Shown one piece after another: positions 3,507 through 54,302 of a stretch of 59,160 nucleotides of DNA. Position 1 is the stretch's first letter. Each line of letters begins with the position of its first letter. The stretch lies in IMG/VR virus record IMGVR_UViG_3300046504_000185, positions 1 to 59,160 of that record, one strand, 5' to 3'. Below the pieces are notes generated by a model, which made no database searches, was not told the origin of the DNA, and saw only the letters and a list, made by a program, of their open reading frames with translations. The position numbers were made by a program, and so were the translations under genes. The stretch comes from a virus (lineage: Duplodnaviria > Caudoviricetes).

Positions 3507-3545
3507 ATTTATAGTTTTCATGGGTTTTCACAAAACCCATTACAC

Positions 3546-3618
3546 TGCGGGGTGGTAGAAGAGGCATCTCGTCAGGCTCATAACCTGAAGATCGGGGGTT
3601 CGAATCCCTCTCCCGCTA
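3546..3618 (+). tRNA. tRNA-Met(CAT), initiator-like; CCA not encoded
   Basis: tgcgggg/tcccgct acceptor with 1-72 mismatch; tcagg-ctcataa-cctga anticodon arm; ggggg-ttcgaat-ccctc T arm; followed by ct rather than cca. Confidence 0.9.
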
Positions 3619-3623
3619 CTATG

Positions 3624-3696
3624 TAGAAGAACTGTTAGTGTTTACAGTAAAATAACGCACAGTGATTTATCTAATAAGACTGACAAATTTCTTCTA
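3624..3696 (+). ncRNA. Y-RNA-like scaffold copy 2 (minimal, no tRNA cargo)
   Basis: tagaagaa/ttcttcta and tgttagt/actgaca stems; gtgtttacagta at 3638-3649. Confidence 0.65.
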
Positions 3697-3727
3697 ATCT
3701 TTTTAACAAACGTTCTTTAAAATATAT

Positions 3728-3865: not shown

Positions 3866-3874
3866 CAAGTAATT

Positions 3875-3908
3875 CCCGGTTGTCCCTGTGGCAACACAAA
3901 CTTCCGGG
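3875..3908 (+). ncRNA. small GC-rich stem-loop with GNRA hairpin
   Basis: cccgg/ccggg enclosing tgtg-gcaa-caca. Confidence 0.4.
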
Positions 3909-3915
3909 TAACGAT

Positions 3916-4080
3916 ACAATGGGAAAACGAAAAGTGTTTACAGTAATATCGGAGGTTCGAATCCTTCCTTCCCCACCAAAATAATAAAATAAGTTTGGGG
4001 AAGTAGACAAGTGGCAAAGTCAATAGTCGGTTAAACTATGAAAACAAAAACAACAAATACTTTTAAAATGTTCCCAATGT
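3916..4080 (+). ncRNA. scaffold copy 4 carrying a circularly permuted tRNA (anticodon GTT, Asn-like)
   Basis: tgggaa/ttccca and aaaagtgttt/aaatactttt stems, then ACAGTA. 3' half first: T arm 3951-3967, cttcccc-a-cca 3968-3978. Then an 18-nt linker and the 5' half: ggggaag 3997-4003, D arm gac/gtc, anticodon arm atagt-cggttaa-actat 4023-4039. Confidence 0.8.
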
Positions 4081-39800: not shown

Positions 39801-40520
39801 ATAAAAGATGAATTTGGTAACAAAAAAGTTGAAGAAGAATTAATTAAGCATTCATATAATCCTGGCGAATTAGAACTAAAGAATTTTGATGGCGATACCT
39901 ACGAAGAATCAATGTATTTAGAGCCAAAAGAAGTTAAGTTTTGGAATAAAACCGGATATGATCCAAGGTTGGTGTGGAACGGTTTTAGTATGTATGAAAA
40001 TGACCGAGTATATTATGAGATTTATGAAGGTGCTTTGAAGTTCTTGAATGATAAAATGCTCGAAAGTGGTAAACCAAAGATCAAATCAATTAATGATAAA
40101 TATGAACAGGGTGATTTTATCTTAGTTAAAGATGGAAGTCAGTACAATCTTGGTGTTTACAATGGTGTATATATTGAAATAATTAGAGAAAATATAGATA
40201 TTCCTAAAAGTCAGGTTGAGATTGAACTCGATAAAAAACGTGCAGAAGAAGAGGAAAAACTTAAAAGTCTTGAAGTTACAATGGCAAAAGAAACGGAAAT
40301 GGATAGGTATTTGAAAGCAATGAAAGAAAAACGTGAAAAATATTTTCCATTATTCCTGCAGAGATTCAAACTCAATGAACAGTATACAATGGATAAACTT
40401 TTTGAAGAAATTCCTGAATCAAGTGGTGCATTTGATGCCTACGTGAAAAACATGGAAACATCTCAGGAAGTGGAAGCAGAAGAATATTCCGATGTTGATG
40501 AAGTTGATGATCCGTATTAA
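36837..40520 (+). CDS. family B DNA polymerase
   Basis: ExoI FDIET, ExoII YNSEEFD, ExoIII YLLDD; motif A DYGSLYP; motif B KILNNSLFG; motif C variant AVTDG. Confidence 0.92.
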   Translation: MDKLKVLTEIKGFLDGYNNLKYLVNVETDPNNNIAECIIHEPGCDPEKRNIKYTPFMYMKNLEQSKLKLYAHFPEILENKKIEYGITITPLKTGNHKRLKNGYCFKITSSKSYNSIIKFLSDGKIYPYEKLKDSDNNDVRDAKGEPIYLYRDLFYAPRTVEQFFISTQTRLYKGIEEYKNVHKVTFDIETTSLRYQIGRVFAIGVRDNRGFEMILEVEKFNDDESEIRLIQDFFNLIASKQPAVICGYNSEEFDFEFILGRAKLLKMDLTQLPTGLKDGIQLRRRPNTSVKYGNTAEKFTATEMWGYSIIDILHASKRTAAVNTEIKATGLKYIAKHEKIAKPNRTYIKGEDNFIGRYYGENKMFVIDDNNNYIQVPEDYQDVTRKLYVLQANKEKLNDKQYKDFRNSYLDKCPAFITWFKDIALPKKMINFISGKNLVRQYLLDDLWETEQVDELYNQSSFMLSKIVPTTYQRICTMGTAAIWNLLLTAWSYENDLAIPHCDVKEDFSGGLARTFKIGYSIRLIKIDYGSLYPMLQLTWDIFPMFDITGVIKKMLLYLTTTRNIYKRLANNDKLNAEELALLKEIDHDAYRKLIENKITDTDRAMFKIKQLPIKILNNSLFGALGSDISFNWSDNNCAARITCSGRLELRHAITWFKKYGCLALLAVTDGINFQIPDRTTIKVNNAEVLYDQPEGLIDEMWKYGDKTGIAALIEKFNKEEMRPPYMSVDNDGEYISCLNLARINYATLSLVKDKKTGEIKEKIKLTGNTIKSKVMSEYIEEFIDKGFELILHGKGKEFVDYYYDYVDDLRFCRIPLKKIASKSKVKTTLNGYKKRGKDKNGQEKGKQAHMELLIEKREKIARMLFEQHKGEFNLEKVKNIDDIDTIMKLVSNYMPPEPELDSVVYHVNRGYLKSHGGSSWIKDKETGEERFAAELIDSNNLLDNPEMRGKYNVAKYLSAFNSRVSTILVGFDDHVINTLLAKIVKKKIKDEFGNKKVEEELIKHSYNPGELELKNFDGDTYEESMYLEPKEVKFWNKTGYDPRLVWNGFSMYENDRVYYEIYEGALKFLNDKMLESGKPKIKSINDKYEQGDFILVKDGSQYNLGVYNGVYIEIIRENIDIPKSQVEIELDKKRAEEEEKLKSLEVTMAKETEMDRYLKAMKEKREKYFPLFLQRFKLNEQYTMDKLFEEIPESSGAFDAYVKNMETSQEVEAEEYSDVDEVDDPY

Positions 40521-40553
40521 CATTTAATAGTATTTATATGAAAATATTGTATC

Positions 40554-41417
40554 ATGCAACTCAAAAAGAAAGAATTAATGGAGATCATAGATTCCAATGG
40601 CGACTTGATTGGAAAGAATGATATGCCTGCAGTAGATGCTAATGCAGACACCCAAGCCAATAATACTACAGACTATAATGCTAAAATAGGCACTCAACCA
40701 TTCAGGTATGATATGTTGGGTCGTTTTGGTTTTACTATGATGCCATTTTTGGAAGGCAAAGAAGATCAAGGACAATTGGACCTTCTTGATGAATTATCTG
40801 CTTTAATGCATAATAAATTCGTAGAACTTACTGATTATTATATCAAACATCCTAATTTATTAAAACCCGATAATCGCAAAGCAAAGGAAGAAAGTGTAGG
40901 ACACAATGAAGAATGTGAAAAAAGAGATATTGAATGGGCAAAAGAAGCAATAAAAATTTTTCAAAGTAATTTCGAAAAGGCATTCAAAGAACCAATTGAT
41001 GAAGCACTTAACAAATCCGATAATTTATCATTGCCTATGGATGATGAAATAAAATACGAATTAAAAAGATTACTTACAGGTAGTAAATATGATAAAGGTG
41101 GAATACTTGACCAAAGAGTTGATCAATTACTTCAGGTACAAGCCAAATGGTTAGAAAGAGCAAAGGAATTATATAGTGCAGAAGAAATTGCCAAAAAATT
41201 ATTTATTTATGATAAAAATCTTAACTCAGGTGTTAGTCTTGATGAAGCCAAGGTTGCCGAAGATAAAATAGTTGACAAGAAAGCCGAAGATGAAATATCA
41301 AATAAAACTGAAGATAAGGAAGTCCGTGAAAAAAAACTTGAAAAAATTGCTGGCTTAATTAATAAGTTGGAAAAGAATGATAAGGAAAAAATTAAAAATT
41401 TATTGGAAAGAAAGTAA
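40554..41417 (+). CDS. hypothetical protein, possible head/internal protein
   Basis: ORF after GTATTTATA; several [ILV]xE sites. Confidence 0.7.
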   Translation: MQLKKKELMEIIDSNGDLIGKNDMPAVDANADTQANNTTDYNAKIGTQPFRYDMLGRFGFTMMPFLEGKEDQGQLDLLDELSALMHNKFVELTDYYIKHPNLLKPDNRKAKEESVGHNEECEKRDIEWAKEAIKIFQSNFEKAFKEPIDEALNKSDNLSLPMDDEIKYELKRLLTGSKYDKGGILDQRVDQLLQVQAKWLERAKELYSAEEIAKKLFIYDKNLNSGVSLDEAKVAEDKIVDKKAEDEISNKTEDKEVREKKLEKIAGLINKLEKNDKEKIKNLLERK

Positions 41418-42206
41418 ATGGCTAACTCAGAATTATATGGTAAGACGTTTCCTGTGCCCTCTGACGTGATTAAATATGTCCAGACGGTGTTGGTATCCAA
41501 CCCCAATGGTGAAGGCGTTAAAAGGGCAAAATTCATTGTTAAAAACGGTATATTGACTTATCAGGAATTAAAACGTTTGAAGAATTTTTTTGATACTTAT
41601 AATCCTGAAATAACCGATAAAATGCAATATGCTCTTGCAGGTGGTAATTTAATGAAAGCATTTGTTGATAAAACACTTCAGGCAGAAAGAAATGCAGTTA
41701 AAGGGGGAAAGGAGATAAGACGGGATATGAATATTGATCCTAATTTAGCCACACATGCTTATCAGACACCAAGACTATCAGAAGCAGAAGATAAAGATAA
41801 GAAAGAGGAAAAACAAAAAAATGCTGTTGCTGTCATTGTAAATAGTGATAATAAAATATTATTATTGAAAAGAGCAAAGATTAAAGATATTTGGATGCCG
41901 GAAAAATGGGCACTTGTTGGTGGCAGAATTGAAAAGGGTGAGACTCCGCAAAAGGCAGTTGAAAGAGAAATAACAGAAGAAACGGGTTTAACGATTGATA
42001 AGTTTATAAAAACTTTTGCAATACATAGAAATCCTGGTAGTATTGAACACATCTTTGCATGCCGTTATGATGGCGATCCGACTGACATTACTTTGAATGA
42101 AGAAAATACAAATTATGGTTGGTATGATATTGATGAAATGAATTATTTGGATATTGTACCGCATTTGATAGAATACATTACATTATCGTTTAAAAAATAT
42201 GAATAA
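41418..42206 (+). CDS. unknown N-domain + NUDIX hydrolase
   Basis: Nudix box GGRIEKGETPQKAVEREITEETGL. Confidence 0.85.
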   Translation: MANSELYGKTFPVPSDVIKYVQTVLVSNPNGEGVKRAKFIVKNGILTYQELKRLKNFFDTYNPEITDKMQYALAGGNLMKAFVDKTLQAERNAVKGGKEIRRDMNIDPNLATHAYQTPRLSEAEDKDKKEEKQKNAVAVIVNSDNKILLLKRAKIKDIWMPEKWALVGGRIEKGETPQKAVEREITEETGLTIDKFIKTFAIHRNPGSIEHIFACRYDGDPTDITLNEENTNYGWYDIDEMNYLDIVPHLIEYITLSFKKYE

Positions 42207-42249
42207 TGTATTTATAATAAAATAATATAAGAATTAAAACAAGAAAAAA

Positions 42250-42480
42250 ATGAGTAAATTAGAAGAAGTAAGTGCACCTTTTAGAAAAACTGAAGTTGCA
42301 AGAAATATGTTTAATTATAATGATGAATATACACTTGGCAATCCAGAAGAACTTTCACCAATAGGTAAAGGCGAAAATAATGGTGAAGTTGGTAGTGCAG
42401 TAGATATTGCAACAAGAAAAGTTTTAGTTGCTAAGAATCCATATAATTATAACAGAGAGTATAACGCAGGAAACGACTAA
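42250..42480 (+). CDS. small hypothetical protein
   Basis: ORF after GTATTTATA; internal repeat ARNMFNYNDEY / AKNPYNYNREY. Confidence 0.7.
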   Translation: MSKLEEVSAPFRKTEVARNMFNYNDEYTLGNPEELSPIGKGENNGEVGSAVDIATRKVLVAKNPYNYNREYNAGND

Positions 42481-43367
42481 TGTTAAGTGAGGTTAAAATA
42501 TTTTTTGAAAACCTCACACACTTTCGACAACTTTTAACTGAGGGTGTTGGTCAGGGTAGTATTGTTGATGCCATTAATAAACATAAAATCGTGCATATTT
42601 ATTATGCAGGCGATGATACAATTTTAAAAGGTTATCGAACAATAAAGCCATACGTATTGGGCAGTTCTAAGTCAAAAGAGGCGGAAACAAAACCTTACAT
42701 GTTATTGAGAGCATGGGAAACTGCAGGTAATTCAGATAGTAAAAAAATGTATTATGACCAAAAAGGAAAGGGACAATATGGTTGGAGATTATTCAGAGTA
42801 GATAAAATCACTTCTTTCTTGCCAACAGGTGAACTTTTCAGTACAGAAAAAAGTAAATTTCCAGACCCTGATGCGTATAATCCCAATGATTCTCAGATGG
42901 GAAGTATTGTTGCTGCCGTTGAAATTGTTGGTGATCAACCAAAAACAAGTGTTAAAGGTAATGTAACTCAGCAACAGGTTCAACCATCGGGTGATACGTC
43001 AGTATTTGCCGGACAGAAAGAAAAATTTCAGAAATTTTCAAACGTTGGCAAAAAACAAAGAGAAGCAACTGCTGATGAAATTGAACATCTTTGGGGAATG
43101 GTAAATCAAATGAGAGCAAGAGGCGCAAAATCAAAATATTTTGTTGTGCAGAATGAACATGGTGACATGATATTAAAAACAGAAAATCAATTACCAAATA
43201 TTGATCCCGATTCAGTTGTTGGAAATCTTAAGGATTTATATAATAAATTAGTAATAGAACCACAACCTGTCGATAACTCATTCTTCAAACAGGTCGAAGG
43301 TAAAATGAGTAAAGATAATATTGCAAAAGAAAATCTCAATAAAAAGGATTTTTTCAAAAATCGATAG
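42480..43367 (+). CDS. WYL-domain protein
   Basis: IYY...GYRTIKPYVLG...LLRAWE...GWRLFRVDKITS. Confidence 0.75.
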   Translation: MLSEVKIFFENLTHFRQLLTEGVGQGSIVDAINKHKIVHIYYAGDDTILKGYRTIKPYVLGSSKSKEAETKPYMLLRAWETAGNSDSKKMYYDQKGKGQYGWRLFRVDKITSFLPTGELFSTEKSKFPDPDAYNPNDSQMGSIVAAVEIVGDQPKTSVKGNVTQQQVQPSGDTSVFAGQKEKFQKFSNVGKKQREATADEIEHLWGMVNQMRARGAKSKYFVVQNEHGDMILKTENQLPNIDPDSVVGNLKDLYNKLVIEPQPVDNSFFKQVEGKMSKDNIAKENLNKKDFFKNR

Positions 43368-43405
43368 TATTTATAAAAAATAATAAAATTTTATAATTTC
43401 AAGTA

Positions 43406-44125
43406 ATGGCAGGAAAAGTTGATTTAAATAAGATAAAAGAAGAAATTGATGTCCGTAAAAAGGAAAGAGGCGTTATGACTGAAAGAGTTCAGGGTGCAAC
43501 ATTGATGCCCAAAGATCAGTTTTTAAATGGTTTAATGACCTCACTTCAAACAGGACAGGATACTGCAGCAACAAATTTAATAAAGTTAGTTGAAAATAAA
43601 ACTGCAGCAAAACACGGAGAAATAGTAAGACATGCTGTAAATGAAACAGTCTTACCGACAACAGTACCAACGGCAAATGTACGTCCAATTCAAGGTGGAA
43701 TACCACTTGAACAAGTAGATATGTCACCTGAAAGAGATGAACAAATGTTTCGTGATCTGGAAGCAAAAAGAAAGAAAACGTTGGCAGAATCAATGAATGA
43801 ATACATTAATGCACCGCATGTTGGTGCTCCAATGTCAAATCAACAAGTTGCTATTCCACCTGCAACAACATATATGAGTAATGGTACAACAAGAGTACCA
43901 ATGCTTAATGAAGCATATCTTGTCGAAAACGTAAATAAGATTGTTCACAATTATCTTGCTGAAAATCTTGGTCCGGTATTCGAAGAGGCAATCAAAAGCA
44001 CAATTATTGAAATGTATGCAGTTGAAAGAATCAAAGAAGTACTGCAAGAAAATCGAGAAATGATAAAGACTGTAGTTATTGAAACAATTAAAGAGATACA
44101 GGCAAGGAGTAAAAAAGCACAGTAA
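43406..44125 (+). CDS. hypothetical protein
   Basis: ORF after GTATTTATA; helical C-terminus. Confidence 0.75.
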   Translation: MAGKVDLNKIKEEIDVRKKERGVMTERVQGATLMPKDQFLNGLMTSLQTGQDTAATNLIKLVENKTAAKHGEIVRHAVNETVLPTTVPTANVRPIQGGIPLEQVDMSPERDEQMFRDLEAKRKKTLAESMNEYINAPHVGAPMSNQQVAIPPATTYMSNGTTRVPMLNEAYLVENVNKIVHNYLAENLGPVFEEAIKSTIIEMYAVERIKEVLQENREMIKTVVIETIKEIQARSKKAQ

Positions 44126-44182
44126 TCTGTGCTTTCTTTTTATAATCAAGTTTGTATTTATTAATAACTTAATATCATCAGT

Positions 44183-47100
44183 ATGACATTTGCCGAATTT
44201 AAAGAGACTTTCTTACCTGAACTACTTAAAATCAAATCATTTAAAGGTAAAATGGACTATGCAAATCAACATTTGCAGAGGATCGGCAGTGGTACTGGCA
44301 GAGTTGTTTATGATATTGATGATGAAAAGATATTGAAATTAGCAAAAAACCCCAAGGGTATTGCACAAAATGAAGCCGAAGCAGGTGCAGGATATTATCG
44401 TGATACACATCATATTGTTGCAGTAGTATTTGATAGTGCCGATGATGATTCATGGTTAATTGCTGAAAAAGCAAAGAAAGTCAATGAAAAAAGAATTATT
44501 GAACTAACAGGCATTCCAAGCCTTAATGACTTGTGGATGTATCTCAAAAATTTTCATTCAAGTAATAACGGCAGAGGAAATATCTTTGGACTAAGTAAAG
44601 ATATTGTTGAACAATTAAATAATAATGAATTTGCACAGGATTTACAGAATTTCGTTGCAGATTATTCACAACAACCCGGAGATTATGGTAGACCAAGCAC
44701 TTATGGAGAAGTTCTTCACGATGGTCAACCATCAATTGTTTTAACCGATTATGGTTTAAATGATGAAGTATATGACACTCATTATAAGCCGAAAAAAGAA
44801 CGCATGTACGAACTCTATAATTTTGCTGATGGTAATGATGATATTCTCGGTGATCTGCCACCACAAGATGCTGTAGATACTCGTCAGGCTATGTGGGGTT
44901 TAATGCCTTATAGTGTTAGTGACGGTGAGGGACAAGAAGTTATAAATGAAAAATTTGTTTCATTTATTAATAATACTAACAAATATCCTACAAGAAGAAT
45001 ATTGCCAAGTACTCCATCCTTAATGGATGAATTTCACAATGTCGTAAATAATCTTAATGAAGTACTTGAAAAGGTCAGTGATAAAAAGAAATTTTATAAT
45101 AATTTATTAGAACTTCAAGATTATTTGATCCGAGGTAAATTCTATGATAGAGAACCATTACAAAAAGAAATGATTGAATTGGATGAAACCAATACACCAA
45201 AACTTAAACCAATGCAATTAGATAAAAACTATAGTAATGGTGTTGCAGAAAAAGTTGCGCAAAAATTAAATCTTGGTGCACCACAATATCTTGGTGGTGG
45301 CGGTTTTGGATATGCGTATTTAATTAATGGGAATAAGGTATTAAAAATAACAACAGATGTATCTGAAGTTGATGCAGGTCTGAAGATCAAAAGAGCAAAA
45401 CCTCAAGCACTTGTGGCTGTTTATAATATATATAAAATAGTTGATGCTGAAAATAATACCTCAACATATGCTCTCATTGAAGAACATATTGCCAATAAAC
45501 CAATAGATGAATTTTTTAAATATGTTTCGATTTTAAATGAAATCCAACCCGAACCCAATATATATGGAAATCTTATGATAATGTTAAGAAAAAAGAAACT
45601 TGATGAATATCAGGAATTAAGTCAAAAGATTTTAACCGAAAATCCAAATGCAGACATACCTCAGTCTGATAGACAAAAGGCATATAATTTTATGATGGGA
45701 TTTCTTGAAATCAAAAAAGAATTGATGCAACTTCAAATCAAATCTGACGATTATAGTAATTTAGAGAATGTGGGTTATAAAGATGGTATTTTAACATACT
45801 TTGATATTGGTGGTAGTTTTAATATAATGCAAGAACCACAACTTCCACCGGAAAATCGAATTGATTTACCGGAAGATGGTTCAGCAAGATTTTCAACCGT
45901 TGATTCTATTGGTAGAGATAATTTTCCTGCATATAATAATACAGATGATGGTTCTCCATTAACTGATCCTAATCTTCCTGTGAATATTTTTGCAGAAGAT
46001 TTGGAATATAATCATGTAGCAGGCGATGCAACACAAGATAAATTCCAGATCACTGAAAGAAAAATGTCTTATATGCCAGGTAGTCAAGCCGTTGAAGTTA
46101 AGAAAAAATGTAGATTGGCAGGTCTTGGCAATACTTCAACTGCTTGTAATCAGGGTGATATTAGCAATTTGAATTTCAAATCAATTGATGAAACTGCAGA
46201 TGTTAATATACCGGGTAAATTAAATGGATATGATTCACTTAAAATAATAGATGGAGATCAAGTTGTGGGTGAAGTTGGTATTATGGATAGGGGAGTTCAG
46301 GGCGGTAATCATTATATTGCTATTGATAAAATTTTTATCGATAAAAATTTCAGAGGTAATGGTTATGCTAATGATGCAATGAATTTAATTTTTGATTATG
46401 CTGATAAAAATAATATAATTGTTACATTAACTCCTGATAATATGTGGGGTGCAAGTGTACCTAAACTAAAAGCATGGTATAAATCAATAGGTTTTGTTGA
46501 AAATAAAGGCAAGAAAAAGGATTTTCAGACCATGCAGTTAATGTATAGATTGCCAAAGGGTCGTGTTAATGAAGAAATTGATGCGAGTGAAGCATATTGG
46601 GATTCAGGAGTAGTACGTACTATGATTCAAGGTAGAAAAGATGTTGGATTACTTGCATCTAAGTTATATCCTGATCTTTATAGTATTGCAGAAAAATATA
46701 ATTTCGGTTTGATTCCAATAAAACAAAGTGATCATAATTTAGATATGAATATTGTCTATCGCAAAACTCCAAGAGGCGAAGCCAATGCAAAGAAATTAGA
46801 ACAAATTATGATTAGTCATGGTGGATATGTTCAAGATAAAACACCTGAAGAAGCACGTGAAATTGGAAAATTATTGGATTATAGTGATGATTCAATTCAG
46901 CAATTCATAGACAGGATATACAAAAATGCTCCGAAAGCACCAGAGTATGCAGATTATCAAGAACTTAATGAACAAACCATTAAGGACTTTGAAAGTCAAA
47001 TTCATAAAGATAATAATACACATGAATTAGATAAATTTCATTTGTATGATCAGGATGATTTTAAAGTATATGCAGTTAATGGTGAAGCAGTACGTGACAA

Positions 47101-49285
47101 TGGTTTTGATGAATGGGTTGATGGCGGTCATCATTATGTTGATGCCGATGAAAAGCCTGAAGATCAGAAGTACGCCAAGTTCATACCTGAAGATGAAATA
47201 TGGGTTGATGATGTATTCTTAATTAAACCTAATGATCTTGCTGCAATATTATTGCATGAAAGACTTGAAAGATTTCTCATGAAGTATTATGGTTTGAAAT
47301 ATGAAAATGCGCATACCAATTTTGCTAATCCTGCAGAAGTTATTTTCAGAAAAAAAACAAAAGATGGTTTCGATGCTGATGTAAGTGATAAAATTTACAA
47401 TATATTTGTAAATAAATTTGCGAAGAAGCATAGCATGAAAAAAAAACTTAACGAATCACTAAGTGAAGCACAAATAATGTCATTACAAGACCTGCCATTT
47501 AATAAAGAAATTGAACAACTTGGTGGTAAAATCTATAGTGTAGGTGGTGCAGTTAGGGATGAATTTTTAGGAAAAGAATCTAAAGATTTGGATGTACTCA
47601 TTACAGGTGTTCCTATGGATCAACTTGAACAAGTACTTAGTAAGTATGGTCGTGTAGATGCTGTTGGCAAATCATTTGGAGTATTGAAATTTAAACCAGA
47701 AGGTGCAACAGAACAAATAGATATTGCAATTCCACGTACCGAAAAACCTTCAGGTGCAGGTGGTCATCAAGGTTTTGATGTGACTTCAGATCATGCTTTG
47801 CCAATTGAAAAAGATTTGGAACGTAGGGATTTTACTATTAATGCTATTGCAAGGGATGCCGAAGGTAATCTTGTTGATCCTTTTGGCGGTACGAAAGATT
47901 TAAAAGACAAAATTATTCGCATGGCTAATCCTGAAGCATTTACTGATGATCCTCTGAGAATGTTACGTGCTGTGCAATTCGCAAGTCGTTTCGGATTTAC
48001 GATTGAACCCGTAACTATGAAAATGATTCAAGAAACTGCAGAAAGAATTAAAGAAATTCCTGCTGAAAGAATTCTGACTGAATTAGATAAAATACTTAAT
48101 AAAGGCGACATGCGTGTTGGTGCACAACTATTGAAAGACACGGGTTTATTTCAACAAATTTTTGGATTTGATTTAGAACAATCAACAATTGATCGAACAC
48201 CTTTTGAAAGTATAAAAACAATGGGTGAATTTATATATCTGTTAACTAAATTAGTACCAAATCCATCAGCATTTTATAAAACTAATTTAAGGGGAGATAT
48301 AGATACCTTTAAAGAAATAAAAGCACTTGAAATGGCATTTAGTAATGCTGATATAAGTAATCCGATCATGGCAAGATCAATTGCATCGAACATGTATTTG
48401 ACTTCACCAAAGACTTTGGAAAGTCAAATCATACCTGAAGAAATTAAAACTGCATCACAGGAATTATTAAGTGGCAGATATCCAAAATCAATTAATGATC
48501 TTACAGTAAATGGTAATGATCTTATGGCATTGGGTTTACAAGGCAAAGAGATTGGCGATACACTAAAAACAATGCTTTTAAAAATTTATTCTGATCAAAT
48601 TAAGAATGATAAAAAAGAATTATTATCTTTAGTGCCGAAAAAAACTGATATTAATGAATTATATGATTATCCTAAATTACGTCCGGAAGAAATAGATACT
48701 TGGACTATAAATGGTCAGAAAGTTAAATTAAGTTTTTTCATTGAAAAATATGATATTTGGAATCAAGGAGTAATTCATGATCCTTCAAAACAATCAGTAT
48801 TAAGATTTTTAGAGGATGAATTTCCGGAATTTTTAGAAGATGAACATTTAAAAAAAGAATTACTTTGGGAATTAACTAATAGAGAATTACTTGATGAAGA
48901 TGATATGAGAAGAGTTTTATATAGTGCCGTTGTTCTTGATAGTGGTGCAAGATTCAGATTAGTTGAAAGGTTTAAAAAATATATTCCGGAAAACTATGAA
49001 ATTATTGCGCATCATATGACAATAAATATGGGTAAGATTGATCCCGAATATGAAAAATATTTGGGAATGTCAGTAGAATTAACTGTTGAAGATATTGCAA
49101 TAGACGATAAAGTAGTTGCAGTTGGCGTAAGTGGTTTTGGAACTAAAAATGCCAAAGCACATATTACTTTGGCAGTAAATACACTTGGTGGTGGAAAACC
49201 AAAAGATTCAAATAATTTAGTAAATTGGCAGAAAATAAGACGACCACTATTAATCAGTGGAAAAGTAACTGAAGTAACCAATTAA
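44183..49285 (+). CDS. 1700-aa multi-enzyme polyprotein: two kinase-like domains, GNAT, HExxE metallopeptidase-like, CCA-adding enzyme, 2H phosphoesterase
   Basis: IGSGTGRVVY..ILK..TDYG (~44280-44760); LGGGGFGYAY..VLK..ENVG..FDIG (~45290-45810); IDKNFRGNGYA (~46230-46550); LLHERLER...AH (~47050-47330); VGGAVRD..DLD, RRDFTINAIA, DPLRMLRA (~47490-48630); HHMTI...HITL (~48910-49280). Confidence 0.85.
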   Translation: MTFAEFKETFLPELLKIKSFKGKMDYANQHLQRIGSGTGRVVYDIDDEKILKLAKNPKGIAQNEAEAGAGYYRDTHHIVAVVFDSADDDSWLIAEKAKKVNEKRIIELTGIPSLNDLWMYLKNFHSSNNGRGNIFGLSKDIVEQLNNNEFAQDLQNFVADYSQQPGDYGRPSTYGEVLHDGQPSIVLTDYGLNDEVYDTHYKPKKERMYELYNFADGNDDILGDLPPQDAVDTRQAMWGLMPYSVSDGEGQEVINEKFVSFINNTNKYPTRRILPSTPSLMDEFHNVVNNLNEVLEKVSDKKKFYNNLLELQDYLIRGKFYDREPLQKEMIELDETNTPKLKPMQLDKNYSNGVAEKVAQKLNLGAPQYLGGGGFGYAYLINGNKVLKITTDVSEVDAGLKIKRAKPQALVAVYNIYKIVDAENNTSTYALIEEHIANKPIDEFFKYVSILNEIQPEPNIYGNLMIMLRKKKLDEYQELSQKILTENPNADIPQSDRQKAYNFMMGFLEIKKELMQLQIKSDDYSNLENVGYKDGILTYFDIGGSFNIMQEPQLPPENRIDLPEDGSARFSTVDSIGRDNFPAYNNTDDGSPLTDPNLPVNIFAEDLEYNHVAGDATQDKFQITERKMSYMPGSQAVEVKKKCRLAGLGNTSTACNQGDISNLNFKSIDETADVNIPGKLNGYDSLKIIDGDQVVGEVGIMDRGVQGGNHYIAIDKIFIDKNFRGNGYANDAMNLIFDYADKNNIIVTLTPDNMWGASVPKLKAWYKSIGFVENKGKKKDFQTMQLMYRLPKGRVNEEIDASEAYWDSGVVRTMIQGRKDVGLLASKLYPDLYSIAEKYNFGLIPIKQSDHNLDMNIVYRKTPRGEANAKKLEQIMISHGGYVQDKTPEEAREIGKLLDYSDDSIQQFIDRIYKNAPKAPEYADYQELNEQTIKDFESQIHKDNNTHELDKFHLYDQDDFKVYAVNGEAVRDNGFDEWVDGGHHYVDADEKPEDQKYAKFIPEDEIWVDDVFLIKPNDLAAILLHERLERFLMKYYGLKYENAHTNFANPAEVIFRKKTKDGFDADVSDKIYNIFVNKFAKKHSMKKKLNESLSEAQIMSLQDLPFNKEIEQLGGKIYSVGGAVRDEFLGKESKDLDVLITGVPMDQLEQVLSKYGRVDAVGKSFGVLKFKPEGATEQIDIAIPRTEKPSGAGGHQGFDVTSDHALPIEKDLERRDFTINAIARDAEGNLVDPFGGTKDLKDKIIRMANPEAFTDDPLRMLRAVQFASRFGFTIEPVTMKMIQETAERIKEIPAERILTELDKILNKGDMRVGAQLLKDTGLFQQIFGFDLEQSTIDRTPFESIKTMGEFIYLLTKLVPNPSAFYKTNLRGDIDTFKEIKALEMAFSNADISNPIMARSIASNMYLTSPKTLESQIIPEEIKTASQELLSGRYPKSINDLTVNGNDLMALGLQGKEIGDTLKTMLLKIYSDQIKNDKKELLSLVPKKTDINELYDYPKLRPEEIDTWTINGQKVKLSFFIEKYDIWNQGVIHDPSKQSVLRFLEDEFPEFLEDEHLKKELLWELTNRELLDEDDMRRVLYSAVVLDSGARFRLVERFKKYIPENYEIIAHHMTINMGKIDPEYEKYLGMSVELTVEDIAIDDKVVAVGVSGFGTKNAKAHITLAVNTLGGGKPKDSNNLVNWQKIRRPLLISGKVTEVTN

Positions 49286-49295
49286 ACATATTAAA

Positions 49296-49964
49296 ATGAT
49301 TGAATTTAATAATAATAAATTTAAAATATTTGGTGATTTTCTTGAAGATGTGACATTGGATGAATTGTTGGAAAAAAATTCATTAACATATAATGATAAT
49401 AAGAAAGGAAAAAAAAATAAAAAGTGGGATTTAGTTTCTTTAAAAATCATTTGGTGCGGCATCGATCCCAAAATGGTATTAAGAACAAAATTTGAGGTTA
49501 AAGGGGATTATATTTCAGCAGGAAGTAATAGAGTATGGATTGAAGTGTTTGGGCATGATGGTAATTCAGGATTAAGTACTACTGAAGCAGATTGGTGGAT
49601 AATTATAACCGGATTTGAAAGAATATGGATAAAACCATTTGAAATTTATCGTTTTATTGAAACACATCCAGAGGCACATAATGGACGTGAACCAGAACTT
49701 GGAAGTGGCGATGATTATATTAAGTTTGTATATAAATTAAATAGAAAAATTTTATGTCCATATATTTATAGTTTAAATGATAAGAAAAAAGCATTTATTA
49801 CAATGATTCCAGAAAATAATCCGTTATTTTGGTTTAATTGCTTGCCCTTAAATCCTGATATGAAAAAATGTATTGAGGGAGCATTAATAAGAGCAAAGGA
49901 ACTTGGATATGATGTTTCTAAATATAATGTAGAATACGATGGTAAAGAGATTAGCAGTATTTGA
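49296..49964 (+). CDS. putative PD-(D/E)XK-like nuclease-fold protein
   Basis: WDL...FEVK.D....N.V.IE....SGL.TT.ADWW pattern seen in phage restriction-fold proteins. Confidence 0.45.
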   Translation: MIEFNNNKFKIFGDFLEDVTLDELLEKNSLTYNDNKKGKKNKKWDLVSLKIIWCGIDPKMVLRTKFEVKGDYISAGSNRVWIEVFGHDGNSGLSTTEADWWIIITGFERIWIKPFEIYRFIETHPEAHNGREPELGSGDDYIKFVYKLNRKILCPYIYSLNDKKKAFITMIPENNPLFWFNCLPLNPDMKKCIEGALIRAKELGYDVSKYNVEYDGKEISSI

Positions 49965-50505
49965 TTTTGATGGAACACTTATAGATTCTCCCGAAAAAGA
50001 ACAAGGGAAGGTTCAATGGTCAGAGAAAAAGGGTGAACCATTTAAATATCAGGGATGGTGGGGCAGACCTGAGAGTTTGGACTTGGACGTTTTTGATATT
50101 AAACCATTTTCAAGTGTGTTGAATCAATTAAAAAAAGAAGCATCAACACCAGATACTGTTGTTTTAGTTCTTACTTCAAGAATGGAAAAATTACGTCCGC
50201 AGGTTGAAGCAGTCCTTAATGTTAATCATATTACTGATCTCATTAGTAAAATCGATATGAAACGTGCTGAAGGCAATAAGGGTATAAAAGTATTGCGTTA
50301 TGTTAATGCGTATCCGGATTTGGAAGAAATAAATGTTTATGAAGACCGTGATACGGATATTCAGGCATATGAAGCCATTAGAAATAAAATTCCTGAAGGA
50401 ATAACGTTTAATATTTATCTGGCAGTAAATGGTAAAATATCTTTGCTTGAAGCAGAAAGCAAGTTATTGAATATTATCAACGAAGAAATTCAAAAATTTA
50501 TTTAA
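49939..50505 (+). CDS. HAD-superfamily phosphatase (RNA-repair 'Swiss Army Knife' HAD-like)
   Basis: VFDFDGTL, GWW, LTSR, K and YEDR motifs. Confidence 0.75.
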   Translation: MVKRLAVFDFDGTLIDSPEKEQGKVQWSEKKGEPFKYQGWWGRPESLDLDVFDIKPFSSVLNQLKKEASTPDTVVLVLTSRMEKLRPQVEAVLNVNHITDLISKIDMKRAEGNKGIKVLRYVNAYPDLEEINVYEDRDTDIQAYEAIRNKIPEGITFNIYLAVNGKISLLEAESKLLNIINEEIQKFI

Positions 50506-50530
50506 CCGTATTTATAGTAAAATTTAGACT

Positions 50531-51361
50531 ATGATCGACATGAGACATAAACCATATTTTCTTCCACAAGTTACTGCACCTGCTGATGCGGTTGTAAAAA
50601 AACTTGATGAAGAAGATGTTGATTATGAGTATATGCAGGTCGATCCGAATAAATTAAATGCTTCTCAGGGTTTTACTTTCAGTGATGATGTTGGAAAAGC
50701 AGAAGTTGATGATATGAATCCTATTTGGATTGACAAAGATATGAATGTACTTGATGGTCATCATAGATGGGTAAAGGCGATGCTCGATGGCGTTCCCTTA
50801 AAGGCAGTTCAGATTGACATGAATTCAAAAGATGCTTGTAGATTACTGAACAAAATACAGGATATTTATGAATATGAACAACAGCAACAATTGGAAGAAG
50901 TAGAGGCACAAGATGCAATTAATGCCAATAATGAAAGGAATGGCGGTGTGAGTTATAGTGAATTCCTGAAATCATTGGAAGAAAATAATGCTGCAGTACA
51001 GGCAGAAAAACCAACTAAGAATAGTAAACAGATTATTGGATATCGTAAAGAACCTCTGAAAGAAAATTCGGTTATTGGTAATTTTTTTACACTCAAACCA
51101 ATTGAAGGATTTGATAAATATCAGATTGATTTTGAAAATTTATTGGATACAAATGATTTGGGTGTGGAGTACAAAGATACTCAAAACCCTGTTGATATTA
51201 TTTCTAAGATATGGTTTCCAAATATAAACTTCGAAAAATTAAGTGAACAGTATGATATACCTTCTCTTAATTTAAAAAATAAAGCCATTGCCGAAAGAGC
51301 ACAAACACTTGGTTATGACGGCATTAAATACGGCAATACATTAATTCAAGGACTTAAATAA
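50531..51361 (+). CDS. ParB/Srx-like N-domain + possible degenerate ADP-ribosyltransferase-like C-domain
   Basis: L.ASQ...PIWID....VLDGHHRW; C-terminal GYR...FF...LGYDGIKY. Confidence 0.6.
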   Translation: MIDMRHKPYFLPQVTAPADAVVKKLDEEDVDYEYMQVDPNKLNASQGFTFSDDVGKAEVDDMNPIWIDKDMNVLDGHHRWVKAMLDGVPLKAVQIDMNSKDACRLLNKIQDIYEYEQQQQLEEVEAQDAINANNERNGGVSYSEFLKSLEENNAAVQAEKPTKNSKQIIGYRKEPLKENSVIGNFFTLKPIEGFDKYQIDFENLLDTNDLGVEYKDTQNPVDIISKIWFPNINFEKLSEQYDIPSLNLKNKAIAERAQTLGYDGIKYGNTLIQGLK

Positions 51362-51369
51362 TTTAAATT

Positions 51370-51729
51370 ATGAATACTTATAAAATAACAAATGTGACAA
51401 ATACTGCAGGTAAACGTGATCCAATGTTCAACTCAGTATTAAATATTGATTACGTTGATGCTATGATGAAAAAAACCATAACAATTAAACCAGGCGAAAT
51501 GATATATTTACAAATATCTACATTGCCATTATCAGTTCATAGACTAAGGGTAAAAAAACTAATTAATGTTGTTGAAATCAGTCGAAGTGAATTGAAAAAT
51601 GCTATAGATGCAAGCAACAAACGTAAACTAAATAAAGAAGTTCCTGTTGAAGTAGTAGAAACTGTTGAAGAAGTGAAAACAACACAATCTAAAAGAAAGA
51701 CGAAAAAGGAAACAACTGATGCTGAATAA
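51370..51729 (+). CDS. hypothetical protein
   Basis: 119-aa ORF with Lys/Glu-rich tail. Confidence 0.7.
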   Translation: MNTYKITNVTNTAGKRDPMFNSVLNIDYVDAMMKKTITIKPGEMIYLQISTLPLSVHRLRVKKLINVVEISRSELKNAIDASNKRKLNKEVPVEVVETVEEVKTTQSKRKTKKETTDAE

Positions 51730-51752
51730 TATAATACTATATTGATTCAATG

Positions 51753-51777
51753 AAGCCAACAAATGTTGGCTTTTTTT
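51753..51777 (+). terminator. Rho-independent terminator
   Basis: aagccaaca-aa-tgttggctt plus T tract. Confidence 0.7.
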
Positions 51778-51866
51778 ATAAAAAGTCTTTCATCTTTGCT
51801 GATTTTCAGTTATTTTTACGTATTTATAATTAATTACATTATTTTATAATATTTTATAGACAGAGT

Positions 51867-54302
51867 ATGGACGGAAAAATCAGAATTTTATTCTATAACT
51901 TAGATGGCGCAGGCGTAAACTACTTCAGAACACAAACACCAGCAATGGAACTTGATAGAAATCATGGTAATGAGTTTTACACAGAAATAAATCCACAGAT
52001 AGACTTTAATGATCCCAAAATTGTTGATTATCTTAAAACATTTCACATCATACATTATCACCGTCAATTTCTTGGTGATACAAAACAAATGGTTCAATTA
52101 GCAAATGAACTGCATAAATCCGGCACAATATTAATGGTTGATATTGATGACTATTGGAATCTACATAAAAAACATCCATTTTATAATCTTGCACAAGAAA
52201 AGAAATTACATATACCAATCTTGGAAAACTTGAAAATTGCTGATTATGTTACTACAACTACAGACATATTTGCCGATGAAATTCGTAAGGTAACATTGAA
52301 AGATAACGTAGGTGTATTCTATAACTCAATCAATCCCCAATGGATGAAACAATTTCAAAATAATTGGAAACCAGACCCTGATGGGTTAGTAAGAATAACA
52401 TATATGGCAGGTTCTTGTTATGATGACCAAACTGAAATATTGACAGAAAATGGGTTTAAATTATTTAAAGATTTGAATATGGATGAAAAGGTAGCAACTC
52501 TAAATTCAAGTGGTGAATTAGAGTATCAATTACCTACAGATTATACAAACGAAGAATATTTTGGTGATATGTTTTATGGTAAAAATAAAAACATAGATTT
52601 TGCTGTAACTCCTAACCATAATATGTTTGTTCATAAATCAAAATCACAAAATAGAAGAAAACCATTTAATTTTAATTTAAATAAAATGGAAAATTTAAAT
52701 GGTTATGATTTAACATTTAAGAAAAATTGTAAATGGAATGGCAAAGAAAAGGATTTTTTTACATTAGAAAAATGTAATTCTGTATTTAAAGAATTTAATG
52801 ATATTAATTTTGAAATGGATGATTGGTTGAAATTCTTTGGATATTGGATTGGTGATGGGTGGGCAACGTGTGATGGTAGTAATCAAGTTGGCATTTGTGG
52901 TGTTAAAGAATCATCAATAATAACAATGAAAGAAATTGAAACCATATTGATTAAATATGGATTTAATCCTACTTGGACTAAAGATGGTATTCAATTAAGA
53001 ATATTTAATCAGCAATTATTTAAATATTTAAATCAATTTGGTGGTGCAAATGATAAATTTATTCCAAATGAAATTAAGAATTTATCAAGTAGGCAATTAC
53101 AAATTTTTATTGATTATTATTTAAAAGCAGATGGCACGATTAGAAAAAATGGAAGATTGTCTTGTGATACAATTTCAAAAAATTTAGTTAATGATTTTAG
53201 TGAAATTGCATTAAAATTAGGTACTTGTGTTACGGTTAAAAATAGGGGTATTAGAACATCAATAATGAAAGATGGAAGAATTATTACAGGCAAACATGAT
53301 GGTTATTGTTTAAATTTTTATGGAAAGGGTGTAAAAAGTCAATTAACACCAACAGTTAACGTGAAAGATATTGTAAAAAAAGAATATCGAGGCAATATAT
53401 ATTGCGTAACAGTTCCTAATCATATATTATATATCAGAAGAAACGGTTTTTCGTATTGGTGTGGTAATTCTCACATGGGTGACATGGAACAACTTGATGG
53501 CGTAATGAATGTATTATCAAATGATTTTAGTATAAAAGATAAATTCAAAGTAATCATTGCAGGTTGGGATACTGAGGGTAATACTACTGATATTACATTT
53601 AATCAGGAATTTGGTGAAGAACTTCAGAAGATTGGACTATGGACCATTAATACGGTTAAAATTATTAATAAAACCCGTGGTAATGTAGATATGATACCTA
53701 AATTACCTGAAGCATTGAAAGAGAAATACAGGGGTAAGGTATTCAGCACAAATCAAAGAGATATTAAATCCGAAGAAAGTGTATATTTGATCTATGAAAA
53801 TATGTTAACGGATAATCATCGCATGATTATAAATCCCGATTATATTCAATGGTTAAAAAATTATGAAAGGAATGTCAGTTATCCGGATGAAGGCAACTTT
53901 GCCCGTAGATGGACGCAAAAAGCAAATACATATGCACAAGTATTAGATGAAACTGACATTGTTATTGCACCACTTGCCGATAATCCATTCAATAGAATGA
54001 AGTCAAATTTGAAACAAGTTGAATGTTGGTCAAGAAAACTTCCGATTGTTTGCAATGATATGCCGCCATATAATGTTCATGGCAGACATTTAGAGAATTG
54101 TATATTAATTCCCAATGAAAAAAATGCCAGAAAGTATTGGCAGAAGTATTTAAAGAGACTGATATTAGATGCTGACCTTCGTAAACAACTTGGTGAACAA
54201 CTATATGAGGACTTTAAAGACGAATATAACTTAACGACTGTAACAAAGAAACGTGCGGACTTTTACAGGGCAGCAGTTATGAAAACATTAGCAGTAGTTT
54301 AA
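51867..54302 (+). CDS. GT-B (GT4-like) glycosyltransferase interrupted by an intein
   Basis: GVNYFR...VDIDDYW...ADYVTTTT...N; DIVIAPLADNPFNRMKSNLKQVE...P; extein junction AGS|SH. Confidence 0.85.
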   Translation: MDGKIRILFYNLDGAGVNYFRTQTPAMELDRNHGNEFYTEINPQIDFNDPKIVDYLKTFHIIHYHRQFLGDTKQMVQLANELHKSGTILMVDIDDYWNLHKKHPFYNLAQEKKLHIPILENLKIADYVTTTTDIFADEIRKVTLKDNVGVFYNSINPQWMKQFQNNWKPDPDGLVRITYMAGSCYDDQTEILTENGFKLFKDLNMDEKVATLNSSGELEYQLPTDYTNEEYFGDMFYGKNKNIDFAVTPNHNMFVHKSKSQNRRKPFNFNLNKMENLNGYDLTFKKNCKWNGKEKDFFTLEKCNSVFKEFNDINFEMDDWLKFFGYWIGDGWATCDGSNQVGICGVKESSIITMKEIETILIKYGFNPTWTKDGIQLRIFNQQLFKYLNQFGGANDKFIPNEIKNLSSRQLQIFIDYYLKADGTIRKNGRLSCDTISKNLVNDFSEIALKLGTCVTVKNRGIRTSIMKDGRIITGKHDGYCLNFYGKGVKSQLTPTVNVKDIVKKEYRGNIYCVTVPNHILYIRRNGFSYWCGNSHMGDMEQLDGVMNVLSNDFSIKDKFKVIIAGWDTEGNTTDITFNQEFGEELQKIGLWTINTVKIINKTRGNVDMIPKLPEALKEKYRGKVFSTNQRDIKSEESVYLIYENMLTDNHRMIINPDYIQWLKNYERNVSYPDEGNFARRWTQKANTYAQVLDETDIVIAPLADNPFNRMKSNLKQVECWSRKLPIVCNDMPPYNVHGRHLENCILIPNEKNARKYWQKYLKRLILDADLRKQLGEQLYEDFKDEYNLTTVTKKRADFYRAAVMKTLAVV
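52416..53468 (+). mobile_element. intein with LAGLIDADG homing endonuclease (351 aa)
   Basis: Starts CYDDQTEILTENG; block B VTPNH; LAGLIDADG-like GYWIGDG and YYLKADG; ends YCVTVPNH..YIRRNG...WCGN with +1 Ser. Confidence 0.92.

Follow-up and report, generated by a model that had tools for sequence, protein, structure and literature searches.

Polyvalent proteins are polypeptides of phages or conjugative elements that unite between two and 15 domains with dissimilar biochemical functions, and the kinases and GNAT acetyltransferases among these domains have been proposed to act as protein modifiers during takeover of the host cell (Iyer et al., 2017; PMC5512222). In Escherichia coli, the HD domain of the CCA-adding enzyme clears 2',3'-cyclic phosphates, which allows the repair of tRNAs with damaged 3' ends (PMC6961547), and CCA-adding enzymes, 2H enzymes and standalone HAD phosphatases of the SAK type are reported among the RNA repair parts of jumbo phages (PMC7824862). 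Here we analyze a 1700-amino-acid (aa) open reading frame (ORF) present in a 59,160-nucleotide stretch of viral DNA (Duplodnaviria; Caudoviricetes; IMG/VR record IMGVR_UViG_3300046504_000185); this entire stretch is referred to in the following as the window. In our reading, to which we assign a probability of roughly 0.55, the encoded protein is a modular multi-enzyme of the polyvalent type whose C-terminal part would repair tRNA 3' ends and whose N-terminal part would modify proteins; this reading leaves the mode of delivery of the protein open.

The ORF (P0001) extends on the plus strand from window position 44183 to 49285 and, as stated in a first-pass annotation of this DNA, forms a single open frame that is uninterrupted from its ATG start codon onward. 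A search of 5.8 billion proteins recovered at least 211 relatives at E ≤ 0.001; 119 of these are listed, and they form the basis of all counts out of 119 given below. BLAST comparisons with the listed relatives split the protein into independently moving modules: residues 1-335 (module 1), 345-565 (module 2), a linker (566-667), 668-794 (module 3), 795-927 (module 4), 928-1090 (module 5), 1091-1493 (module 6), 1494-1571 (module 7) and 1572-1700 (module 8). At least five enzyme families are represented in this single ORF, which is part of a viral record that contains phage genes, and the domain assignments support the earlier view that protein-modifying and tRNA-end enzymes are fused in one polypeptide. 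Three regions had been overlooked by the first-pass annotation, namely an NleE-like domain (795-927), the conserved linker (566-667) and the small module comprising residues 1494-1571.

Candidate tRNA 3'-end repair modules and the neighbouring HAD gene

On its sequence, module 6 (residues 1091-1493; 47453..48661, plus strand) can be firmly assigned as a class II tRNA nucleotidyltransferase of the CCA-adding type, with head, neck, body and tail regions and no HD domain. Pfam recognizes the PolyA_pol head at residues 1117-1246 (E 4.6e-23) and the PolyA_pol_RNAbd neck at residues 1271-1327 (E 6.3e-16), the PHROG tRNA nucleotidyltransferase family matches the module with an E-value of 4.4e-65, and the NCBIfam model for CCA tRNA nucleotidyltransferases (PRK13299) aligns with residues 1104-1487 over positions 10-393 of its 396 (E 3.8e-49). 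The best solved relatives of module 6 are the CCA-adding enzymes 6ibp (1.2e-30) and 1miv. Class II enzymes are customarily described by the motifs A (GGxVRD...DxD), B (RRD), C, D (EDxxR) and E; module 6 contains GGAVRD...DLD (1121-1137), RRDFTINA (1214-1221), DPFGG (1232-1236), DDPLRMLRA (1255-1263) and ERILTE (1295-1300). The first of these aligns with the same motif of 6ibp and is nearly invariant among the relatives, in which the other four are conserved as well. The Pfam and NCBIfam matches, the solved relatives in the PDB and the intact motifs confirm the class II nucleotidyltransferase that had been named from the first-pass annotation.

A likely substrate of this module is encoded by the phage itself. 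ARAGORN makes a single call, a tRNA-Met (CAT) at 3546..3619 on the plus strand whose gene lacks an encoded CCA and is followed by TAT. Of the two CCA-less tRNAs that had been noted earlier, at 3546 and 3728, the former is hence real, while ARAGORN calls nothing at the latter position. Near the tRNA-Met gene, Rfam reports a full tRNA match at 3407-3477 (37.3 bits), a partial one at 3803-3857, for which possible acceptor halves with extra sequence between them can be seen (GGGGAGA at ~3729 and TCTCCCC at ~3858), and weak tmRNA-like (transfer-messenger RNA-like) matches at 3951-4005. This tRNA-like cluster (3407-4005) may consist of interrupted or unusual tRNA genes.

The CCA-less tRNA-Met, the further tRNA-like genes nearby and the position of the large gene within a conserved block of replication and nucleotide-metabolism genes would all fit a housekeeping role, in which the protein matures the phage's CCA-less tRNAs in the cytoplasm, its other modules are regulatory or unrelated, and counter-defence plays no part. 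We regard this explanation as quite unlikely. Hosts normally provide a CCA-adding enzyme, and the relatives of the window protein swap in counter-defence modules, among them ART-PolyVal and, in 42 of 119 proteins, Acb1, an enzyme directed against the cyclic-oligonucleotide-based antiphage signalling system (CBASS); such rapid shuffling of modules is typical of conflict proteins.

Module 8 (residues 1572-1700; 48896..49282, plus strand) forms the C-terminus of the protein and appears to be a minimal 2H phosphoesterase that is nearest to the cyclic phosphodiesterase (CPD) type of tRNA ligases. Its two HxT motifs, H1611-x-T1613 and H1660-x-T1662, show no variation across an alignment of 17 module 8 sequences, and the Pfam family tRNA_lig_CPD (PF08302) matches 16 of these 17 members at E ≤ 0.01 (best E 2.1e-7). 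Together, the invariant HxT pair and the PF08302 matches support the C-terminal 2H phosphoesterase of the first-pass annotation. Standalone viral clusters of 131-137 aa with PF08302 resemble module 8 in the Atlas with scores of 0.95-0.96. Neither the single sequence nor a 17-sequence profile of module 8 retrieved a 2H structure from the PDB sequences; weak matches to Myb proteins in the same collection were dismissed as spurious. Between the nucleotidyltransferase and the 2H domain lies module 7 (residues 1494-1571; 48662..48895, plus strand), a small module of unknown function that has no family match in Pfam, shuffles independently in the relatives and can occur without module 8 (e.g., in P0045, P0047 and P0065).

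Iyer et al. (2017; PMC5512222) argued that in polyvalent proteins a repair function of 2H domains is less likely than a role as RNases or in the breakdown of signalling nucleotides, because no RNA ligase accompanies them. Applied to the window protein, this proposal would make module 8 an enzyme that degrades immune signalling nucleotides (in an Acb1-like or 2'-5' oligoadenylate-like manner) or an RNase, with no healing of RNA ends; Acb1 is itself a 2H enzyme and is present among the relatives. We consider such a function extremely unlikely for module 8. Sixteen of the 17 module 8 members match tRNA_lig_CPD and not Acb1, and the Acb1-type and CPD-type 2H modules can be aligned over 16 columns only, around the second HxT motif. 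By BLAST, the Acb1-type module is found in 42 and the CPD-type 2H module in 62 of the 119 listed relatives, and 19 proteins possess both, which argues for different jobs of the two types. Furthermore, module 8 is fused beside a CCA-adding enzyme and is followed by a HAD gene of the repair type. The fusion of a 2H domain to a CCA-adding enzyme answers the ligase objection as far as damage to the 3' end is concerned.

This HAD gene (P0121; 49939..50505, plus strand) encodes a 188-aa phosphatase with the motif FDFDGT that is a candidate for the removal of a linear 2'- or 3'-phosphate. It matches PF10307 (HAD_SAK_1, "HAD domain family 1 in Swiss Army Knife RNA repair proteins") with an E-value of 1.3e-5, shows a weak match to the polynucleotide kinase family phrog_415 (E 1.4e-4), and is present downstream of the large gene in the loci of eight relatives.

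From these parts, a route for the healing and rebuilding of tRNA 3' ends can be envisioned that would work without a ligase. The 2H module would open the 2',3'-cyclic phosphate that remains after RNA has been cut by a metal-independent RNase or has broken spontaneously, the HAD phosphatase, whose gene is predicted to be co-transcribed with that of the large protein, would take off the remaining phosphate, and the class II nucleotidyltransferase, judged by its intact motifs, would then re-add C, C and A; the latter enzyme would in addition complete the CCA-less tRNAs that the phage itself encodes. The first-pass annotation had already pointed out that a 2H cyclic phosphodiesterase and CCA addition provide the chemistry needed to restore tRNA 3' ends cut by toxins. 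This suggestion is plausible, and it is strengthened by the conserved HAD gene, by the CPD type of the 2H module and by the analogy to the HD fusion of E. coli.

Kinase-like, GNAT, NleE-like and HExxE modules

Module 2 (residues 345-565; 45215..45877, plus strand) resembles a truncated protein kinase. It contains a Gly-loop (371-377), K388, E395, D523, N529 and D541-x-G543; among these, G376, K388, E395, N529, D541 and G543 are invariant, and D523 is nearly so. Its structural model has a predicted local distance difference test (pLDDT) value of ~90. All rows listed by Foldseek for module 2 are kinase-fold chains (E ~1e-4), and in each of two VIA-align searches 50 out of 50 rows were kinase-type chains aligned on residues 340-559, with PKR (6d3k; Z 11.2, rmsd [root-mean-square deviation] 3.7, 150 aligned residues) at the top. 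The aligned ranges of the kinase chains end just after the DFG motif (e.g., CDK2 1-148 and PknB 3-163), and module 2 hence has no C-lobe, the part that reaches from the activation segment to helix I.

Module 1 (residues 1-335; 44183..45187, plus strand) is probably a kinase-like domain as well. Its Gly-loop (GSGTGR, 35-40), K52, E66, D167 and DYG (189-191) are invariant in an alignment of 38 sequences, the pLDDT of the model is 80-90 over residues 1-190, and phrog_4301, a family of unknown function, matches at residues 23-210. When modules 1 and 2 were compared with hhalign, only the stretch from the Gly-loop to the Lys residue, which corresponds to the ATP-binding strands, was aligned (E 5e-4, 35 columns), and both wide structural searches with a model of residues 1-675 were filled by matches of module 2. 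Of the two kinase-like domains that had been proposed earlier, the second therefore has the support of its fold (Z up to 11.2), while the first stands on conserved residues and a weak profile match. For the two kinase-like modules and for the linker that follows them, a Pfam search at E ≤ 10 yielded no credible match.

This linker (residues 566-667; 45878..46183, plus strand) is covered in 118 of the 119 listed relatives; the pLDDT falls below 50 over residues 564-634. It carries, in otherwise low-confidence surroundings, the motif KKKCRLAGLGNTSTACNQGD at residues 640-659 (window 46100-46159), near-invariant in the form KKKCRLxGLGNTSxACNQGD, in which C643, C655, N656, Q657, G658 and D659 hardly vary. 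The motif might mark a site of binding, targeting or processing.

Module 3 (residues 668-794; 46184..46564, plus strand) is a GNAT acetyltransferase that moves independently in the relatives. It scores 22.6 bits against the Pfam model Acetyltransf_1 (cut-off 20.7), and four more GNAT models, including Acetyltransf_7 and Acetyltransf_10, match below their cut-offs. The acetyl-CoA motif of GNATs reads R/Q-x-x-G-x-G/A, and the segment RGNGYA (724-729) within the FRGNGYA stretch of module 3 (723-729) fits this consensus. The GNAT assignment of the first-pass annotation is confirmed by the Acetyltransf_1 match above cut-off and by FRGNGYA.

Module 4 (residues 795-927; 46565..46963, plus strand) corresponds to the C-terminal two thirds of the fold of NleE, a protein cysteine methyltransferase whose S-adenosylmethionine (SAM)-binding residues are Arg107, Glu191 and Tyr212 (PMC4239114). 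The top four rows of a Foldseek search with this module are NleE chains (4r29: E 2.9e-4, probability 1.0). A search independent of Foldseek returned 4r29_A with Z 11.3, rmsd 2.2 and 117 aligned residues, covering NleE residues 83-220, together with an uncharacterized Porphyromonas protein (2guk_B; Z 9.9), while the next row had a Z-score of 5.0. A profile built from 18 module 4 sequences matches 4r29 at E 9.3e-4; the single module 4 sequence had no match among the PDB sequences, so that NleE was found there by the profile alone. The profile aligns NleE residues R107, E191 and Y212 with K819, E890 and F908 of the window protein. Among the relatives of module 4, the position of K819 is occupied by K or R, E890 is invariant, and the position of F908 is occupied by Y, F or H; the changes at the equivalents of the SAM site, K819 and F908, appear conservative. 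Standalone phage proteins of 120-132 aa possess the module 4 fold.

The fold matches of module 2 include the small archaeal tRNA kinase ArkI (7vnx, Z 8.7) and PRPK/Bud32 (7sza). Bud32 acts in tRNA modification. One could therefore think of a protein that works on RNA throughout, in which the kinase-like, GNAT and NleE-like modules phosphorylate (or act as ATPases on), acetylate and methylate tRNA or other RNA. The combination of kinase-like and CCA modules is kept in most of the listed relatives, and the neighbouring HAD protein falls into a family named after Swiss Army Knife RNA repair proteins, observations that agree with this idea. We nevertheless judge it to be highly unlikely, since the top fold matches of module 2 are ordinary protein kinases, kinase-like modules are also found in proteins without a CCA domain, the coupling of kinase and CCA modules is in part an artefact of using the whole protein as the search seed, and NleE methylates a protein cysteine (PMC4239114). 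Most likely, the kinase-like, GNAT and NleE-like modules would serve as protein modifiers in takeover, with the kinase-like domain or domains, the GNAT and the NleE-like domain acting on host or phage proteins.

A more far-reaching proposal seems rather doubtful to us. The kinase-like plus CCA core would work as a unit on tRNA, with the kinase-like modules acting on it as kinases or ATPases in the manner of ArkI and Bud32. Joined by the 2H module and the HAD phosphatase, the protein would guard tRNA 3' ends against an uncharacterized host defence system that attacks the acceptor end, and the NleE-like domain would methylate cysteines that bind zinc in defence proteins of the host. If true, this would be the first use by a phage of NleE effector chemistry.

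Module 5 (residues 928-1090; 46964..47452, plus strand) is a conserved HExxE...H...E domain that is possibly zincin-like. HExxE is located at residues 1025-1029, H1044 and E1052 lie on the following helix, and H1025, E1026, E1029, H1044, N1049, E1052 and R1056 are nearly invariant. The module differs from zincins by HExxE in place of HExxH and by a different set of possible ligands. Its fold matches are weak but coherent (ERAP1, Z 4.2; lugdulysin, 4.0; SPRTN, 3.9; PprI, 3.8; jannalysin, E 1.2), and an Atlas search with scores of at most 0.76 was uninformative. Hence, the motif of the peptidase-like domain proposed in the first-pass annotation is real and nearly invariant, while a peptidase fold is weakly suggested (Z 3.8-4.2). 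The domain of module 5 recurs at the C-terminal end of proteins of 335-381 aa in two further phages (L011, 9284-10291; L012, 30-1148). In L011, which belongs to an unrelated phage lineage, the gene has a head-tail adaptor-like gene (plus a homing endonuclease) on one side and baseplate wedge genes on the other.

Relatives, transcription signals and gene neighbourhood

The relatives of the window protein are 935-2975 aa in length, many of them are encoded on contigs of 100-366 kb, and one is 89% identical over the full length. Among the 119 listed, the N-terminal region is covered in 104-118 proteins, the CCA region in ~114, the middle modules in 36-75 and the C-terminus in 60-82. Relatives keep a core of kinase-like (one to three repeats) and CCA modules and swap the counter-defence modules Acb1, ART-PolyVal, GNAT, NleE-like and 2H CPD. 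The automatic names given to relatives by JGI already read "tRNA nucleotidyltransferase / GNAT / 2'-5' RNA ligase". Precomputed Pfam assignments for the 119 listed relatives comprise PF13563 (28), PF18760 (10), PF23474 (8), PF08302 (5) and PF20798 (2). PF18760 represents ART-PolyVal and PF23474 the anti-CBASS enzyme Acb1; in the five of 119 relatives that were scanned, ART-PolyVal is present in P0088 and P0110, and Acb1 in P0033, P0053, P0067 and P0110. In these relatives, Acb1 forms a module of its own that follows the CCA region and precedes the C-terminal 2H domain. While Acb1 is mostly known from small standalone proteins, the anti-CBASS modules of the Acb1 type seen here are parts of giant multidomain proteins of phages. 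The window protein itself has no PF23474 match, and BLAST aligns just 12 residues with Acb1 (E 1.9).

The search was seeded with the whole protein, which inflates the frequency with which kinase-like and CCA modules appear coupled. A search among shorter proteins gave 76 matches, among them standalone forms of ~218 aa; one shorter match is named a serine/threonine kinase by JGI. The coupling of kinase-like and CCA modules is frequent, not obligatory.

Aside from the published doubt about the 2H domains of polyvalent proteins, a number of results speak against our reading of the window protein. Several profile scores stay below their cut-offs: the PRK13299 score of module 6 is 167.8 against an equivalog cut-off of 290, so that, judged by its sequence, the enzyme may have CCA, A-adding or poly(A) specificity; module 8 of the window protein reaches 22.3 bits with PF08302 (cut-off 23) and P0121 25.5 bits with HAD_SAK_1 (cut-off 25.6); and module 4 matches the Pfam NleE family with E 4.4e-5 and 23.6 bits (cut-off 27) and the NCBIfam NleE model with 27.5 (cut-off 75). 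Motif D of module 6 begins with D in place of E, a conservative change that is kept across the family. Module 5 has no Pfam match at E ≤ 10, zincin models included. The window protein has no Pfam match to the PolyVal signature domains ART-PolyVal and Kinase-PolyVal; the latter was found neither in the window nor in any of the control genomes, which makes this weak evidence of absence. The CPD-type 2H module is missing from 57 of the 119 listed relatives, which makes the function of the CCA module independent of the 2H domain, and proteins of 640-930 aa with a double kinase-like region and no CCA match in Pfam occur on contigs of up to 348 kb. An RNA_ligase domain (PF09414) is not present in the window, an 18% fragment of its genome, and is present in two of the five records searched, namely the two most complete related ones (54% and 66%), where the genes lie far from the large gene; one of them weakly matches Rnl2, and the other has no NCBIfam or PDB match. 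RtcB was found in none of the same five records, the window included. Finally, the gene context is that of replication and nucleotide metabolism, not that of head or packaging genes.

The large ORF is flanked by recognizable transcription signals. A terminator-like hairpin at 44114..44135 (plus strand; a stem of 9 pairs, 4 of them G-C, followed by CTTTTTATAA) closes the upstream gene, and a promoter-like motif, GTATTTATT, is located at 44154..44162 on the plus strand, 21 nt upstream of the ATG. The corresponding consensus GTATTTATW occurs 14 times in the window, always on the plus strand, versus 4.6 expected occurrences (examples are the sites at 23523, 29135, 40530, 42208, 43367, 44154, 50508 and 51820). 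Most copies are positioned just upstream of ORFs, both virion-like (23579 and 29159) and replication-type (40554, 42250, 43406, 50531 and 51867). A scan for sigma-70 promoters remained at the level of chance (50 found, 50.3 expected). We take GTATTTATW to be a real promoter-like signal and a candidate phage promoter that is uninformative on timing. Because it also precedes replication genes, the "late-type" label attached to it in the first-pass annotation is unsupported. After the site at 44154, the next copy follows at 50508, with no plus-strand terminator in between; the terminator at 44114-44135 and these two motifs predict a transcription unit consisting of the large ORF, a 222-aa ORF (49296..49964, plus strand) and the 188-aa HAD gene. 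The 222-aa ORF is poorly conserved; it has no family match and a counterpart in only two of nine relatives' loci.

The record represents a fragment (59,160 bases) of an uncultivated jumbo phage with an estimated completeness of 18%, which corresponds to a genome of roughly 300 kb. A nucleotide search with positions 40000-52000 found no match among isolated phages, the nearest isolates by DNA polymerase are Salinibacter phages (24% identity), and tblastn matches of the whole protein to isolated phages are confined to the CCA region, with none of 513 records covering 80% of the query. The lineage possibly infects Bacteroidales; one relative from the search among shorter proteins is labelled Bacteroidales bacterium, a mere hint as to the host. 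The window also carries genes for a DnaB-type helicase and an anti-repressor-like protein, and several tail-fibre or virion-like proteins are encoded between 11 and 32 kb, at least 12 kb upstream of the large ORF. The large gene is preceded by a helicase gene, a QueC-like gene, the gene for a family-B DNA polymerase (36837-40520), a 287-aa ORF, a NUDIX hydrolase gene (41418-42206) and three small ORFs, and it is followed by the HAD gene and three further genes. The order of this neighbourhood is kept in the relatives' loci at 35-80% identity, and in seven syntenic loci the large gene likewise has DNA polymerase, NUDIX and HAD neighbours.

This context bears on the first-pass proposal of an injected payload. 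Such a protein would be made late, packaged into the head and delivered together with the DNA, and its own HExxE domain would perhaps cut it into separate enzymes. Polyvalent proteins as a class have been proposed to be injected and to be self-processed by zincin-like peptidases (PMC5512222), the HExxE domain ends proteins of two other phages, in L011 one encoded between a head-tail adaptor-like gene and baseplate wedge genes, and long linkers of low confidence separate the modules of the window protein. On the other side, no MuF, portal or other virion-anchoring domain was found in the window protein or in the precomputed Pfam assignments of the 119 listed relatives, the neighbours in the window and in the seven syntenic loci are DNA polymerase, NUDIX and HAD genes, and the motif upstream of the ORF is shared with replication genes. 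With regard to self-cutting, the match to the zincin fold is weak (Z ~4) and the motif is HExxE, not HExxH; the first-pass term "polyprotein", taken in the sense of proteolytic processing, is unsupported. We therefore view injection as unlikely and retain the reading of a multi-enzyme for tRNA 3'-end repair and protein modification whose delivery is left open.

Other genes of the window show features of their own. The relatives of the 287-aa ORF located 3' of the DNA polymerase gene (40554-41417) match residues 1-150 and 228-287 only, and this gap indicates an insertion of ~77 residues in the window copy. An 811-aa gene (51867-54302) has PHROG matches of the thymidylate-synthase/ribonucleotide-reductase-like and glycosyltransferase types; its relatives match residues 1-239 and 528-811 and not the middle, where LAGLIDADG_3 is found at 414-460, and this middle part is probably an intein or a homing-endonuclease insertion specific to the window phage. 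Two ORFs that flank the virion-like genes (21305-23437 and 31518-32912) match the same stretch of phrog_9915 (1813 positions; function unknown) with E-values of 1.4e-107 and 7.3e-60, respectively, and appear to be paralogues.

Comparison with known multi-enzyme and RNA repair systems

The window protein resembles the polyvalent proteins (PMC5512222) in that many unrelated enzymatic domains are combined in one phage polypeptide whose architecture is heavily shuffled. The two also share kinases without the C-terminal subdomain, GNAT, a nucleotidyltransferase of the Pol-beta superfamily and 2H domains, and ART-PolyVal is found among the relatives of the window protein. Unlike the polyvalent proteins, the window protein has a nucleotidyltransferase that is a full CCA-adding enzyme, contains an NleE-like domain, shows no match to Kinase-PolyVal, and is encoded in a context of replication rather than of packaging or late genes. 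The terms "CCA" and "NleE" are absent from the main text of PMC5512222, whose supplement may list such architectures.

With the CCA addition and repair protein of E. coli (PMC6961547), the window protein has in common the fusion of a class II nucleotidyltransferase to a phosphoesterase for tRNA ends that carry a 2',3'-cyclic phosphate. The NCBIfam model of the E. coli multifunctional CCA protein (NF008137) matches at E 1.8e-45 over model positions 2-207 of 409 only, and from this end point it follows that the window protein has no HD domain. In contrast to the E. coli enzyme, a non-homologous 2H domain replaces HD, and ~1100 extra N-terminal residues with other enzymes are present. For module 8, the nearest Pfam family is that of the cyclic phosphodiesterase of fungal Trl1 (PF08302), with which it shares the two HxT motifs; the match spans positions ~137-219 of 250, the module comprises ~125 residues, and neither a ligase nor a P-loop kinase is joined to it. 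Acb1 (PF23474) belongs to the same 2H superfamily and is represented by Acb1-type modules in 42 of the 119 relatives, from which the window protein differs by the lack of such a module.

Module 4 and NleE/OspZ (4r29) share their fold and the motif ARExGxxxxY. Module 4 has no counterpart of the first ~80 residues of NleE, the alignments beginning at NleE residues 83-85, is 20-24% identical to it, stays below the Pfam and NCBIfam cut-offs, and is part of a phage fusion protein. With the NleE-like domain, a chemistry known from type III effectors in enteric bacteria would have a counterpart in phages.

If our reading is correct, a ligase-free repair of 3' ends would settle the objection raised in 2017 against a repair function of 2H domains for the family of the window protein, and it would point to host defences that damage the tRNA acceptor end. 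With its at least 211 members, in which Acb1, ART, GNAT and NleE-like modules are exchanged around a constant scaffold, the family would further serve as a natural inventory of the counter-defence parts that uncultivated giant phages possess.

As in the RNA repair sets of jumbo phages (PMC7824862), a CCA-adding enzyme, a 2H phosphoesterase and a standalone HAD phosphatase of the SAK type are found together in the window; these parts are encoded by separate genes in the sets described there, whereas the window protein fuses the CCA and 2H enzymes to each other and to protein-modifying modules. In the sections of that article drawn on here, "CCA-adding" and "polyvalent protein" stand in separate statements. 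Polyvalent proteins (2017) and RNA repair in jumbo phages (2021) are known already; what the locus described here appears to add is a family of the polyvalent type whose core is a CCA-adding enzyme and which combines a putative ligase-independent set for tRNA-end repair with an NleE-like module.

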